A DNA stretch of 3,621 nt from a virus (Duplodnaviria; Heunggongvirae; Uroviricota; Caudoviricetes). This document shows, in pieces, positions 1 to 3,621 of the stretch (positions are counted from its first letter, which is position 1; each line of letters opens with the position of its first letter). The stretch lies in the IMG/VR virus record IMGVR_UViG_2675903595_000013; one strand, given 5' to 3'. The position numbers were made by a program, and so were the translations under genes. A model generated the notes under the pieces. The model was not told the DNA's origin. It searched no databases and saw nothing but the letters and a program-made list of their open reading frames with translations.

Positions 1-32
1 CCAATGACTAGTCTAAAAACTAGTATTAAGAC

Positions 33-52
33 TATCACTTATTTAAGTGATA
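33..52. repeat. Perfect 20-bp palindrome TATCACTTA-tt-TAAGTGATA (9-bp arms, 2-bp spacer) in an AT-rich intergenic region; candidate operator, function unknown
   Basis: Read directly: 33-41 tatcactta is the reverse complement of 44-52 taagtgata. Nearby dyads include gactagtc (6-13), actagt (20-25) and gggata-N10-tatccc (~133-154). Confidence 0.5.
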
Positions 53-213
53 CTGGTTGTCTGGAGATTCAGGGGGCCAGTCTAACGATACAGCGCATGA
101 TGTGTCAGGCTTGAATACCTTTATCCTTTAAAAGGGATATCAGTTAAGTTATCCCGTGTAGGGTATAAGCCATTATCAAAGCCACTCTGTAGGGAATGGC
201 TTTTGTGATGGCA

Positions 214-285
214 TCACTTACTCTTTACGCTGCTATCCCACTCATCCCGGAATTTTGATGGGTTATTGAAACCTTCTGCTGACAT
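214..285 (-). CDS. Hypothetical small ORF (23 aa, MSAEGFNNPSKFRDEWDSSVKSK) with strong Shine-Dalgarno
   Basis: ATG at 285-283 (minus) is preceded by AAGGAG (plus 291-296 ctcctt) at ~7 nt spacing; stop TGA at 216-214. The frame stays open upstream to an ATG at 378-376 (54 aa), but that start has no good RBS. No family recognised, and it is too short for composition to be informative. Confidence 0.2.
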   Translation of the reverse strand: MSAEGFNNPSKFRDEWDSSVKSK

Positions 286-509
286 AACAACTCCTTCAAT
301 GTTTGGCTGAAATTGGGATGTCTTTCCATCAGTCCGCCACCACAAAGAATCTTTTTTGCCATAAGGCAGGAGGTTCATCTTTCAGTGGCTGCCGGTGTTA
401 TTTCCCCACTTACTGGCTTGGGTTGTTTCGTGGTACTGCCGTTAACTGGTGGCCCAGAATAAATTCCGGTTTCATTATCAAGCCCACCCGTAAATGGGCT
501 TTGTAATGG

Positions 510-767
510 CTACTTCGCTTTTGCTTCCGCTCGCTTACGCCGGCGCTCTTCTTTCCTCTCGGCTTTTGCCATGTCCATGAATGCCTGCATGATCGAGTTC
601 CGCATCATGTAGCTAACAAAGTGATGATTGACACAGCCGTTGAGGCGCAGCTGCTCGCCAAACTCATCCACCGAGGCCAATGCTTCCATCATGCCCTTCT
701 CGCCTTTCATGAACTCTGAGAAGTCGCGCCCCGCTCTGGAGGCGCATTCAATAACATGATCACTCAT
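510..767 (-). CDS. Hypothetical small protein (85 aa) with a highly basic Lys/Arg/Glu-rich C-terminal tail, translationally coupled to the upstream KilA-N gene
   Basis: ATG at 767-765 overlaps the stop of the KilA-N ORF (766-764) in an ATGA arrangement. The protein ends AKAERKEERRRKRAEAKAK. No family recognised from memory. Could be a separate gene or the C-terminal part of a longer ancestral KilA-N/antirepressor gene split by a frameshift. Confidence 0.5.
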   Translation of the reverse strand: MSDHVIECASRAGRDFSEFMKGEKGMMEALASVDEFGEQLRLNGCVNHHFVSYMMRNSIMQAFMDMAKAERKEERRRKRAEAKAK

Positions 768-1261
768 CCCGGAAGCCCGGGGATCGTAATCTGCAGCTGG
801 TTAGCCAGGGAGTTAATCTCAGCGACCAACACTGGCTTCGTATAGCGCCATGCTGCCAGCCCTTGTCCGCAGAAGCTCGCCATATCTTTCTTCTGGTCAA
901 ATTCATGACATTTCATGTTGAGCTGCGCACTTAAGCTGTTGCGATGCTGAAGTTCTCCGGTGAAGTAGTCATCGAGGACTTTATAGGCCGCGTACTTGAA
1001 CCCGGGGTTTAACCAAGCCGCATAATCGTAAGCAACAAACTTCCCGCCATATGTTCCACCGTGTACACCGCGCTCAGTAAAAACCACAGATTCGTGGTTT
1101 TTCTCCAGCTCGGCTAAGAACTCTTTGGTCTGCTTGTTTCGCAGGTAGTGGTAAGGCGATTCAGATTCACTTTTACCACTGGCTTTCCACATATCAGTGA
1201 GGCAGATCATGCCATCTTCACCGATACGAATTGGTTGATTGAAGAGGGTTAATGATTTCAT
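764..1261 (-). CDS. KilA-N domain DNA-binding protein (165 aa), phage-associated
   Basis: The translation carries the characteristic KilA-N (PF04383-like) signature: ...ICLTDMWKASGK..., YLRNKQTKEFLAELEK, GGTYGGKFVAYDYAAWLNPGFKYAAYKVL. ATG at 1261-1259. Lies immediately downstream of the lysis cassette on the same strand. Confidence 0.75.
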   Translation of the reverse strand: MKSLTLFNQPIRIGEDGMICLTDMWKASGKSESESPYHYLRNKQTKEFLAELEKNHESVVFTERGVHGGTYGGKFVAYDYAAWLNPGFKYAAYKVLDDYFTGELQHRNSLSAQLNMKCHEFDQKKDMASFCGQGLAAWRYTKPVLVAEINSLANQLQITIPGLPG

Positions 1262-1376
1262 AGCGTGTACCTACTCTTTGAAATGAACCTTTGCCGCACA
1301 GGAAACCAGCCCACCGAGGCTCGCCAGCACTAACTGGTATCCTCAAAGGCCCATTCCAAAGGGGCAGGTTCGGTGT

Positions 1377-1403
1377 AAAAAACATGCGTTGCGGTACGCA
1401 TTT
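1377..1403 (-). terminator. Candidate rho-independent terminator downstream of Rz/Rz1
   Basis: Plus 1384-1389 atgcgt pairs with 1396-1401 acgcat (6-bp stem, 6-nt loop). On the minus-strand RNA the hairpin is followed by G + UUUUUU (plus 1377-1382 aaaaaa). Sits ~60 nt after the Rz stop. The stem is only moderately GC-rich. Confidence 0.35.
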
Positions 1404-1462
1404 ATTGCAAAAAGCCCCGCATCGCGAGGCTCATTAAATGGACTTTGTGATTTGCAAAAAAA

Positions 1463-1921
1463 TTATTTCAGGCATTGCGTCCTGATGTATTCCTGCAGGT
1501 AGTTAACCTGCGCGGTTATCTTGTCGATTCCACTTCGGAGACGGTAATAATTGAGTTCAGCATCTGCTGTAAGTCCTGGGCTTTCTCCATCGCCCATGCC
1601 GCTGGCTCCGGTCGTTGACTTTGCACAGGTGGCGGCGACTTGCAGGCGCTTACGCCCAGCAGAAACATCAGCACGGAGACTTTCGATAGTCGCGTTAGCA
1701 TCAGCAAGCTCCTTTATGTATCTTGCGTCGAGTTCTGCTACATCACGTTGACGCTTCCGCATGTCAGCGATGGTGGCGTTCGCCTTCTCCAGTTCACTGG
1801 CCTTGTTATCGCGCTGCTCTTTGTAGGCGATTGCGTTATCACGGTAATGATTAACAGCCAATGACAGGCAGACGATGATGCAGATAACCAGAGCGGAGAT
1901 AATCGCGGTTACTCTGCTCAT
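1463..1921 (-). CDS. Rz: Rz i-spanin (inner-membrane spanin subunit), 152 aa from the ATG at 1921
   Basis: Translation [31 protein letters not shown]... closely resembles lambda Rz, with an N-terminal TMD and a coiled-coil periplasmic domain. The six-frame ORF starts at a GTG (1933), but the ATG at 1921-1919 has a GGGGGAA Shine-Dalgarno and overlaps the endolysin stop (ATGA at 1921-1918). Confidence 0.85.
1516..1701 (-). CDS. Rz1: Rz1 o-spanin (outer-membrane lipoprotein spanin subunit), embedded in the +1 frame of Rz
   Basis: Translation (M)[35 protein letters not shown]... has a signal peptide with a lipobox-like VSAC followed by a proline-rich segment, typical of Rz1. It lies wholly inside Rz. 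The ATG at 1701-1699 is preceded by AAGGAG at 7 nt; the six-frame ORF starts two codons earlier at a TTG (1707). Confidence 0.7.
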
Positions 1922-2415
1922 TGTTTCCCCCACAAACAGACTTCACGCTCAATCTCACGGCGAGTCATCAGTCCTTTCCATTGATTACCGCCAGCGTATG
2001 TCCAGCGCCGTAGCTGATCACATGCGCCTTTAATATCACCCTGGTTTATTTTGCGAAGAAGCGTCGATGTTCTGAAATTGCCAGCACCCACGTTGTAGAC
2101 GAACGAGTAAAGAGCGCAGCGCGTTGTTTCCGGTATATCGACTTTGATGTACGGGTTAATTTGTCTGGCGACAGTGGCAAGGTCTTTATTCAGGAGGGCT
2201 TTGCACTCTGCTTCGGTATACGTTTTACCGGGAATGATGTCTTTTCCTGTATGCCCGTAACATACAGTCCATACACCAACTATGTCTTTGTAAGGATTAT
2301 GTCTCACACCTTCCAGACCATCGTTACCACCTGGGCCAGTGATTAACACAGATGCTATAGCAATAGCCCCGCCACCAATAGCAGCAGCAACAGCTTTTCG
2401 TAATGATGGAGGCAT
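1918..2415 (-). CDS. R: SAR endolysin (signal-arrest-release lysozyme, phage 21 R21-like), 165 aa
   Basis: N-terminal Gly/Ala-rich weakly hydrophobic segment ([20 protein letters not shown]) typical of a SAR domain. T4-lysozyme-type catalytic spacing E35-x8-D44-x5-T50 ([18 protein letters not shown]). Start ATG overlaps the holin stop (TAATG at 2417-2413). Length matches the R21 family. Confidence 0.9.
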
Positions 2416-2630
2416 TATCCACCTCTCGCAGCCTTGCGCTTATCTTCTTTAATCTTGAAATAAAGGTTTGTCAGGTACGTCAGCAGGCCAAATACCAGGC
2501 TACCCAGCACTCCAATTGCCGCCCACTGTGAGGGCGTGACTTTATCTAGCAGCTGTAAAAACCAGTACCCGGCACTACCTGCTGAGGTGCCATAGGCGAC
2601 ACCCGTTGTTAACTTATCCATGGATTTCAT
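2415..2630 (-). CDS. S: Pinholin (phage 21 S21-like class II holin) with a dual-start motif, 71 aa
   Basis: Translation [71 protein letters not shown] has two TMDs, a charged C-terminus, and the Met1-Lys-Ser-Met4 dual start (antiholin/holin) characteristic of S21. A GAGGTGGGG Shine-Dalgarno lies upstream. Confidence 0.9.
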
Positions 2631-2741
2631 AACCCCACCTCGCAGACAAAGCGGGTGTAAATTGAGGGAATACTACGAAACGTAACAGACTCGGAGTCAG
2701 TGAATAACTCAGGTATTGGGTTATCAGCTAATATCGAGACT

Positions 2742-2772
2742 CAAAAAATGGAAAAACCCGCTCGACGGCGGG
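2742..2772 (-). terminator. Intrinsic terminator hairpin upstream of the holin gene, candidate tR'-like late-leader terminator (possibly bidirectional)
   Basis: Plus 2757-2761 cccgc pairs with 2768-2772 gcggg (5 GC pairs, 6-nt loop). On the minus strand the hairpin is followed by UUUUUCCAUUUUUU (plus 2742-2756). Plus 2752-2756 is an A-run and 2773-2775 is ttt. It sits ~110 nt upstream of the holin start, analogous to lambda tR' preceding S. Confidence 0.45.
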
Positions 2773-2820
2773 TTTAAGCTGTGTGACGAAGTAACCACTC
2801 TTAACAGCATAACCAATTTT

Positions 2821-3051
2821 GGTGATGCTGCCAACTTACTGATTTAGTGTATGATGGTGTTTTTGAGGTGCTCCAGTGGCTTCTGTTTCTATCAGCTGTC
2901 CCTCCTGTTCAGCTACTGACGGGGTGGTGCGTAACGGCAAAAGCACTGCCGGACATCAGCGCTATCTCTGCTCTCACTGCCGTAAAACATGGCAACTGCA
3001 GTTCACTTACACCGCTTCTCAACCCGGTACGCACCAGAAAATCATTGATAT
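2821..3051 (+). mobile_element. Truncated IS1 copy: left inverted repeat plus the first 231 bp only
   Basis: 2821-3051 is identical, base for base, to 3291-3521 of the downstream IS1. It begins with the IS1 left IR GGTGATGCTGCCAACTTACTGAT. Identity ends at 3052, where the IS21-family fragment begins. Confidence 0.85.
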
Positions 3052-3079
3052 TGTCAGCGCCAGTGATATAAGACGGTAA
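2876..3079 (+). pseudogene. insA: Truncated insA: first 58 codons (zinc-finger region) fused to 9 foreign codons, lacking the C-terminal HTH
   Basis: Translation is identical to InsA through ...THQKIID, then IVSASDIRR and a stop encoded by the adjoining IS21-like sequence. The CxxC...CxxC motif is retained; the HTH region ([22 protein letters not shown]) is absent. Confidence 0.7.
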
Positions 3080-3257
3080 TTCGCCATTTGGATTGTCCGC
3101 TCCACCCAACATGTTGTTTCCTTAAGGTTCTCACACCAGAAAGGACATCAACATGCTGAGCAGAGAGGACTTTTACATGATAAAGCAAATGCACCAGCAG
3201 GGCGCGTACATCGTCGATATTGCGACTCAGATTGGTTGCTCTGAACGGACGGTCAGA
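3052..3257 (+). mobile_element. IS21-family (IS21/IS100-like) left-end fragment: terminal sequence plus the 5' end of istA
   Basis: Begins TGTCAGCGCCAGTGATATAAGACGG..., which is IS21-family terminus-like. It contains an ORF start at 3153 whose translation MLSREDFYMIKQMHQQGAYIVDIATQIGCSERTVRR matches my recollection of the IstA N-terminus (HTH region) of IS21/IS100. The fragment is cut off after ~35 codons. Confidence 0.5.
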
Positions 3258-3317
3258 CGCTTCTCAACCCGGTACGCACCAGAAAATCAAGGTGATGCTG
3301 CCAACTTACTGATTTAG
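3153..3317 (+). pseudogene. istA: Truncated istA 5' fragment (N-terminal HTH, ~35 codons) reading through into IS1 sequence; chimeric 54-codon ORF
   Basis: ATG at 3153. After ...SERTVRR the frame continues into IS1-derived sequence ([18 protein letters not shown]) and stops at TAG 3315-3317 inside the IS1 left IR. Confidence 0.45.
3258..3289 (+). repeat. 32-bp direct duplicate of internal IS1 sequence (cgcttctcaacccggtacgcaccagaaaatca) between the IS21 fragment and the second IS1
   Basis: Identical to 3013-3044 in the first IS1 fragment and to 3483-3514 in the second copy. Followed by a single a (3290), then the IS1 left IR. Confidence 0.85.
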
Positions 3318-3345
3318 TGTATGATGGTGTTTTTGAGGTGCTCCA

Positions 3346-3621
3346 GTGGCTTCTGTTTCTATCAGCTGTCCCTCCTGTTCAGCTACTGACGGGGTGGTGC
3401 GTAACGGCAAAAGCACTGCCGGACATCAGCGCTATCTCTGCTCTCACTGCCGTAAAACATGGCAACTGCAGTTCACTTACACCGCTTCTCAACCCGGTAC
3501 GCACCAGAAAATCATTGATATGGCCATGAATGGCGTTGGATGCCGGGCAACTGCACGCATTATGGGCGTTGGCCTCAACACGATTTTACGTCACTTAAAA
3601 AACTCAGGCCGCAGTCGGTAA
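3346..3621 (+). CDS. insA: IS1 InsA (transposition inhibitor / N-terminal part of the InsAB' transposase), 91 aa
   Basis: Translation [91 protein letters not shown] matches IS1 InsA, with a zinc-finger and an HTH. GTG start at 3346; TAA stop at 3619-3621. Confidence 0.95.
3597..3603 (+). promoter_or_regulatory. IS1 A6C (AAAAAAC) programmed -1 ribosomal frameshift site for InsAB' transposase production
   Basis: The motif a-aaa-aac lies at insA codons 84-86 (L-K-N), the position where IS1 is known to frameshift into insB'. The insB' frame itself extends beyond the window. Confidence 0.7.

Follow-up and report, generated by a model that had tools for sequence, protein, structure and literature searches.

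An IS1 insertion within the predicted late promoter of a DLP12/434-like prophage, as in Shigella sonnei, and its probable effect on Q-dependent lysis gene expression

Late promoters and lysis genes of related phages

In phages lambda, 21 and 82, the late promoter pR' lies directly after the gene for the antiterminator Q. In phage 21 (6P18, 6JNX), the Q-binding element is situated between the -35 and -10 hexamers, comprises two subsites centred at -21 and -13 that are both essential, and is required for loading of Q21 at a sigma-dependent pause. The Q protein of the phage type studied here is of the same Pfam family but only distantly related to Q21 (E = 7.6e-8 over 80 residues), as is the Q of Shiga toxin (Stx) phage 933W, to which it is 79% identical; the TGAGCA direct repeats bound by Q21 were not present at the locus described here.

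Much nearer are the Stx phages 933W and Sakai Sp5/Sp15, which have the same Q family and a homologous -35, spacer motif, -10, initial transcribed region and first hairpin. Their late promoter, like that of the DLP12 type, is constitutive, and read-through is what depends on Q. The late promoter of Stx phages overlaps the 3' end of Q and is followed by a second terminator at +258, which defines the sRNA StxS, and by tRNA and stx genes; at the present locus, in contrast, the predicted promoter lies 170 nt upstream of the holin gene, is followed by the first hairpin alone and is split by IS1. Prophage DLP12 of E. coli K-12 (essD-rrrD-rzpD/rzoD, with antiterminator QuuD) is identical in its promoter block and leader and shares the quuD-porin-pR'-holin order. 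Both K-12 and 434B carry IS5 in nmpC, upstream of an intact promoter, whereas here IS1 lies within the promoter. Downstream of Rz there is a KilA-N gene in place of the bor gene of DLP12 and 434.

The DNA analysed (the window: the whole stretch of 3,621 nucleotides, IMG/VR record IMGVR_UViG_2675903595_000013) represents the late end of a defective DLP12/434-like lambdoid prophage, as in Shigella sonnei, with lysis genes that read leftward. Its left boundary and coding features are as follows.

1..84, minus strand: what we take to be the left end of IS2, in reverse complement; left boundary of the prophage remnant (similarity to E. coli relatives begins at base 85)
510-767, minus strand: 85-aa ORF downstream of the lysis genes (ORF list)
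764-1261, minus strand: KilA-N domain gene downstream of the lysis genes (ORF list; Pfam KilA-N)
1463..1921, minus strand: Rz i-spanin, 152 aa from the ATG at 1921 (ORF list; Pfam Phage_lysis)
1516-1707, minus strand: Rz1 o-spanin, nested in Rz (ORF list; spanin annotation in phage 434)
1918..2415, minus strand: SAR-type endolysin, 165 aa, with a Gly/Ala-rich N-terminus (ORF list; Pfam Phage_lysozyme)
2415..2630, minus strand: S21-type class II holin/antiholin, 71 aa, with the dual start M-K-S-M (ORF list; Pfam Phage_holin_2_1)

The Pfam calls for the lysis and KilA-N genes were made on identical or near-identical genes of the S. sonnei relative L008. Homologues are annotated in the phage 434 record as S71/S68 holin, SAR endolysin and spanins. 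From these features, the window is predicted to encode a phage 21-type pinholin/SAR-endolysin cassette with nested Rz/Rz1. The holin, endolysin, Rz and Rz1 frames were all open and equal in length to those of intact phages, in agreement with the initial annotation, which had called all four lysis ORFs intact. In relative L009, the DNA adjoining the counterpart of 1-84 encodes IS3-family ORFs of 121 and 301 aa.

Position of pR' and of the IS1 junction

The 76 bp that precede IS1 (window 2745-2820) aligned unambiguously with the 933W segment annotated as pR', qut and rho-independent terminator. The annotated pR' of 933W reads TTTACG-16-TATCAT and overlaps the end of Q; intact relatives of the window carry TTTACG-16-TATGCT at the insertion site, with the spacer TACGTAAAAAATTGGT. 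In Sakai Stx phages, the PR' start and the 3' end of tR' have been mapped 258 nt apart (Sy et al.). A start 258 nt before the U-tract of the second terminator in 933W falls on an A located 7 nt after TATCAT, so that the annotated 933W promoter fits the experimental map. By homology, pR' of the window's phage is placed at the insertion point, as TTTACG-TACGTAAAAAATTGGT-TATGCT, with a predicted start at about 2799. Promoter scanning alone was not significant (3 hits versus 1.5 expected).

2631..2799, minus strand: late leader of about 169 nt, from the predicted start at about 2799 to the holin ATG (homology to the 933W start site)
2744..2775, minus strand: candidate tR', an intrinsic terminator with a stem-loop at 2775-2754 and a U-rich tract to 2744 (terminator scan; RNA fold)
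2776..2805, minus strand: near-invariant initial transcribed region GTTAAGAGTGGTTACTTCGTCACACAGCTT (invariant alignment columns; table of 25 loci)
2806..2811, minus strand: -10 hexamer TATGCT of pR' (-12 to -7), on the lysis side, aligned with TATCAT of 933W pR'
2813..2820, no strand: left copy of the target-site duplication CCAATTTT, leftover of the downstream promoter spacer (both copies in L008, L009 and L016)
2821..3050, plus strand: IS1 nt 1-230, comprising the left inverted repeat, the insA promoter and a truncated insA (repeat family D1; 100% identical to the L008/L009 copies)
2829..2834, minus strand: outward -35-like TTGGCA in the IS1 left inverted repeat, 17 bp from TATGCT (promoter scan)

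The motif TTTAC[GA][AT][AT]CGTAAAAA had a single copy, on the late strand, in each of the 20 related loci checked and was absent from the window. It lies downstream of cargo in phages of the porin, lipocalin and other cargo types. In L013, which has no cargo just after Q, it begins about 30 nt after that gene, and the match to window 2752-2820 begins about 42 nt past the Q stop codon. Each of 363 phage records contained a single copy of the block of promoter, leader and hairpin; the roughly 280 Stx phages among them matched at 77-78% identity, with the block at the end of Q in those listed. The order in Kati, PhiR30_1, 434, ev243, Lambda_4C10 and K-12 DLP12 is Q, about 190 bp, a porin gene on the opposite strand, an AT-rich spacer of about 570 bp, and the holin gene. 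In intact relatives, the late strand carries a predicted sigma-70 promoter between Q and the lysis genes; its -10 half is all that the window keeps.

The initial annotation had supposed another arrangement, with pR' and qut far to the right after Q and lost as a unit, such that IS1 merely separates a complete leader-tR'-lysis unit from them. Such a layout would agree with the position of pR' immediately 3' of Q in 933W, as in lambda, 21 and 82, and with the distance of 1.9 kb between Q and the holin gene in porin-type relatives. However, the 190 bp after Q in porin-type phages held neither the class A promoter motif (see below) nor a sigma-70 consensus hit, and the homologue of the 933W pR' occurred once, at the insertion site. 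Moreover, Q-modified polymerase passes terminators over long distances, and an IS between promoter and genes therefore need not block late expression. We regard this layout as very improbable: the -10, start, initial region and terminator are all placed within 2744-2811. In porin-carrying relatives, where Q is 1.9 kb away, the cargo is found between Q and pR' rather than between tR' and the holin gene. Alignment to intact relatives, which the initial annotation had proposed as a check on whether pR'/qut is missing or retained, gave a divided answer, in that the -10 side is retained and the -35 and upstream half of the spacer are displaced; likewise, an intact promoter and qut within 2773-2820 would have told against the annotation, and that stretch contains half of the promoter. 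Window 2776-2805 covers the site that the 933W record labels as putative qut. The placement at the insertion site relocates the late promoter of DLP12/434-type prophages to immediately upstream of the holin leader, with cargo between Q and promoter.

A variant in which pR' sits next to Q, about 1.9 kb off, with the hairpin as a second terminator, was rejected in view of L013, 933W and the motif census. Separately, in class A phages the cargo between Q and pR' is a porin gene or genes for lipocalin, desulfurase or an AraC-type protein (L002 2906-4576, L024 1340-4196, L019 1531-3410), and the antiterminator gene is thus up to 1.9 kb from its promoter; in Stx phages, by contrast, cargo comes after tR'. 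One published coordinate set counts against our placement. In PMC7918800, an essD reporter spans -121 to +650, citing Rueggeberg 2015, and its forward primer implies an essD start about 525 bp upstream of the ATG, near the start of nmpC. An RpoE-dependent essD start other than pR' is implied; a promoter of this kind would likewise be displaced by IS1.

The IS1 left inverted repeat GGTGATGCTGCCAACTTACTG begins at 2821, with insA running rightward from 2876, and the distance from the holin ATG to IS1 is exactly 190 bp (2631-2820); the earlier description of an IS1 some 190 bp upstream of the holin and reading away from it was therefore accurate. The product of the truncated insA ORF (2876-3079) matched Pfam Zn_ribbon_InsA, and DDE_Tnp_IS1 was called in the homologous IS1 copy of L009. 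The identity of the element is further given by its length in L008 (768 bp), its terminal repeats (GGTGATGCTGCC... and ...GGAGTCATTACC) and its insA/insB' frames. An 8-9 bp target-site duplication had been anticipated at the other end of the element, and closely related genomes provided it: in L008, L009 and L016, an 8-bp direct duplication, CCAATTTT, stands on both sides of the 768-bp IS1. The window holds the left copy alone, the right end of that IS1 copy being absent. The empty site CATAACCAATTTTTTACGTACG was found in 13 of the relatives fetched, and every other relative that carries this spacer has the site empty.

The simple 768-bp insertion was common to five assemblies (L008, L009, L010, L011 and L016), one of which is confirmed S. 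sonnei (L008 = CP022457.1, strain 2015C-3566). Window 1-3051 differed from L008 and from L009 by one mismatch each, and the truncated 67-aa InsA had an exact protein match in NCBI assemblies L008-L011. At the junction, the lysis-side flank CATAACCAATTTT is joined to GGTGATGCTGCC. This exact junction had no match in genome_contigs and none that was contiguous in complete E. coli genomes, nor does any complete E. coli genome carry the window whole. A literature search found no description of the lesion; Leuzzi et al. 2017, a possible describer, lay outside its scope.

Candidate Q-binding element, terminator and hybrid promoter

The junction falls between -22 (2821, the first IS1 base) and -21 (2820). 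The lysis side keeps the -10, the predicted start, the initial transcribed region, the terminator and the 169-nt leader. In S. sonnei, at least 776 bp now separate this side from the -35 and the upstream half of the spacer, which are found beyond IS1 in the sequence TTTACGTACGTAAAAAATTGG followed by GGTAATGAC; the window lacks both. Within the spacer, IS1 cuts the conserved CGTAAAAA in two.

Comparison of Q types gives this motif a possible role. Two classes were distinguished: class A Q proteins are 78-93% identical to one another and class B proteins 70-99%, with 47-51% identity between classes. Class B promoters have GCGGTCCGC or GCGTACGC in place of the class A TACGTACGTAAAAA (class B sites: L015 2845-2892; L025-L027 about 1457-1504; L029 1480-1527). 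Class A promoters pair with class A Q and class B promoters with class B Q, and the transcribed leader is common to both; in L019 and L021, a class A Q and a class A promoter, the latter after cargo, stand before a different leader. Because Q class tracks the promoter while the leader is shared or swapped, a Q-specific determinant upstream of +1 is indicated, in agreement with the position of the binding site in phage 21, and CGTAAAAA (-26 to -19), which covaries with Q type, is a candidate Q-binding site. The covariation rests on a handful of lineages, and in several of them Q and promoter are linked, so that co-inheritance could mimic it. If it holds, it is a pointer to the Q-binding element of the Q933W family, which controls Shiga toxin expression. 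Alternatively, the putative qut annotated in 933W downstream of the start is intact here; should that be the true site, Q might load on a hybrid promoter.

The hairpin at 2775-2754 consists of 8 pairs, 5 of them G-C, around a 6-nt loop and is followed by TTCCATTTTT (terminator scan). It lies at +25 to +56 from the predicted start, after an initial transcribed region that in intact relatives is near-invariant over 25 nt and with about 110 nt of leader onward to the holin gene, and it aligns with the 933W terminator annotated at 20726-20748, the first after pR'. The tR'-like hairpin that had been noticed at 2742-2772 corresponds to this stem-loop with a shift of a few bases, and is homologous to the 933W terminator. 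By fold and homology, then, a candidate intrinsic terminator stands between the promoter and the late genes. Folding gave no second terminator-like hairpin 3' of 2744 in the leader; the leader z-score of -1.35 indicates a real hairpin in a segment that as a whole is not unusually structured. An Rfam Trp_leader hit at 2748-2839 (minus strand; 28.8 bits versus a gathering score of 41, E = 0.005) was rejected, the terminator shape being probably responsible. In Stx phages, the first hairpin (+25 to +49; 933W L022 1225-1249) looks canonical and is at least partly read through, since the 258-nt StxS precursor is made.

These features suggest how the insertion may act. In an intact prophage, Q made elsewhere in the element would load at native pR' and carry RNA polymerase through the terminator. 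Sequence comparison shows that IS1 entered the spacer at the -22/-21 step, with a duplication of 8 bp. A sigma-70 hybrid promoter may persist by way of the IS1 hexamer TTGGCA with the ideal 17-bp spacer, and Q loading would probably be lost with the cut CGTAAAAA, by analogy with the Q21 binding site. Transcripts from the hybrid promoter would end at the hairpin as RNAs of about 50 nt, and the lysis genes are expected to be silent and unresponsive to prophage induction. We consider it likely that an IS1 inside pR', between -35 and -10, uncouples the intact lysis cassette from Q in this way. The initial annotation had surmised a disruption of Q-dependent late transcription of an intact cassette, and the split of pR' at 2820/2821 makes such a disruption probable. 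If so, there would be a testable molecular reason for an intact S. sonnei lysis cassette to ignore its antiterminator; and as a functional DLP12-type lysis module attenuates Shigella virulence according to the literature, the route by which it is silenced in each lineage is of some interest.

Published work on IS1 describes, within its inverted repeat, a -35 box that faces outward and forms hybrid promoters, and an IS that lands in a promoter and donates a -35 is an event of a well-known kind. At this junction TTGGCA occupies -35..-30, and TTGGCA-17-TATGCT, whose spacing is within 16-18 bp, is a candidate IS1 hybrid promoter. It matches the earlier suggestion of an IS-derived promoter. Described IS1 hybrids (Prentki et al. 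1986; afaA in ST131; acrEF; blaTEM) likewise have the outward -35 at 17 bp from a resident -10. Those hybrids activate a silent or weak gene, whereas the -10 here came from a functional, regulated promoter and the terminator still follows it; the effect is likely to be lost Q dependence rather than gained expression. Two further promoter-like arrangements were observed at the ends of the element. The insA -35 CTGCCA (promoter 2828-2855, plus strand) and the outward TTGGCA (promoter 2834-2806, minus strand) share bases on opposite strands, so that the two promoters and InsA binding should compete. At the other end, in L008 5229-5258, the displaced native -35 and spacer face the right inverted repeat of IS1, and TTTACG is followed 17 bp on by TAATGA; the pair could form a weak hybrid promoter that reads into the element, antisense to insB.

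Could the hybrid promoter have been retained because it drives Q-independent, low-level expression of the cassette or a short leader RNA? It is at least as good as the native promoter by consensus (9/12 matches with a 17-bp spacer versus 8/12 with a 16-bp spacer), hybrids of this kind are documented, all five assemblies keep intact lysis ORFs, and the terminated PR' transcript of Stx phages is a functional sRNA. Yet the terminator between promoter and holin is intact, and homology to StxS covers the first 60 nt or so, without its active 3' part. In an IS1-filled genome, the -35 should be blocked by InsA, which binds the inverted repeats of the element, and the insA promoter overlaps the same bases on the opposite strand. 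The attenuation of virulence by a functional cassette also argues against selected expression, and we judge this activation unlikely. A stronger version, in which IS1 rewired pR' to an IS1/InsA-controlled, Q-independent promoter kept by selection in S. sonnei, seems to us quite improbable; were it true, the product would be a short terminated RNA (a truncated StxS or a 6S analogue) or leaky pinholin/SAR-endolysin expression, kept, for example, for envelope turnover or vesicle release.

The intact reading frames had been taken to suggest either a recent insertion or selection for retention. S. sonnei is a young, IS-rich clone, and with the insertion common to five assemblies the intact ORFs need no selection. 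We give about even weight to the possibility that the position has no selective meaning, as an accident of an AT-preferring IS1, present in many copies in S. sonnei, in a prophage that was already defective. Favouring it, at least four complete E. coli genomes have an independent IS1 in the same AT-rich spacer, and the remnant is also bounded by IS2 and contains an IS1::IS21 nest. The insertion is apparently fixed in the assemblies seen, which might seem to count the other way, though drift in a young clone predicts the same; and the possibility concerns selection, not mechanism, so that it is compatible with the split promoter described above. The independent IS1 insertions elsewhere in the essD-porin spacer are those of E. 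coli TA8571, EC6, EC24 and JNEC-KY204 (L006 8642 among them). They indicate that this spacer is a favoured IS1 target and that the position seen here may be chance; being upstream of the promoter core, they are presumably harmless to the promoter.

The IS1/IS21 nest to the right of the insertion

Beyond position 3050, the window departs from a simple IS1 insertion.

3051..3261, plus strand: left end of an IS21-family element inside IS1, with the istA start at 3153 (identical to the IS1::IS21 junction of L008-L011, 5.5 kb further right)
3258..3290, plus strand: 32-nt piece equal to IS1 nt 193-224, plus one extra A (repeat family D2; base-level view)
3291..3621, plus strand: second IS1, nt 1-331, leaving the window end (repeat family D1; 100% match to the L008 IS1)

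The end of the IS21-like element (207-211 nt), which carries the family name ISEc62, meets the 32-nt IS1 piece at a CGCT microhomology, and the second IS1 copy holds a complete 91-aa insA frame (3346-3621). In L008 and L009, the DNA beyond IS1 carries the rest of the spacer, the porin gene, quuD, ylcG, rusA, ybcO and ninE, with quuD intact and its protein identical to K-12 QuuD. In these two genomes, a second direct IS1, split at nt 230 by the IS21-like element, lies 5476 bp further on; L010, L011 and L016 have the junctions in common with them. The IS1 of the window continues into the IS21-like end of that second IS1, as if IS1 x IS1 recombination had removed about 5.5 kb or the assembly had followed a false path through the repeat. 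In the arrangement as it stands in the window, the porin gene and quuD were probably deleted along with the -35.

We regard it as possible, though the less favoured reading, that everything right of 3050 is an assembly artefact by way of the repeated IS1 and that the true locus is a simple IS1 with the porin gene and quuD beyond it. The switch occurred within a repeat of 230 bp that shows no difference between the two loci of L008 and L009, and the IS21-to-IS1 joint at 3258-3290 had no match in genome_contigs, metagenome_contigs or complete E. coli genomes. Weighing against an artefact, two direct IS1 copies separated by 5.5 kb are an unremarkable substrate for genuine homologous recombination, and a joint with 4 nt of microhomology is not something that a k-mer assembler can create without spanning reads. 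The joint itself is either a strain-specific rearrangement or an artefact; the 54-aa chimeric ORF was without match in an exact look-up. An IS21-like element has also taken another route to inactivation in this prophage type: in E. coli O166:H15 JNE070796 (L007 5479-8105), ISEc62 splits the endolysin gene.
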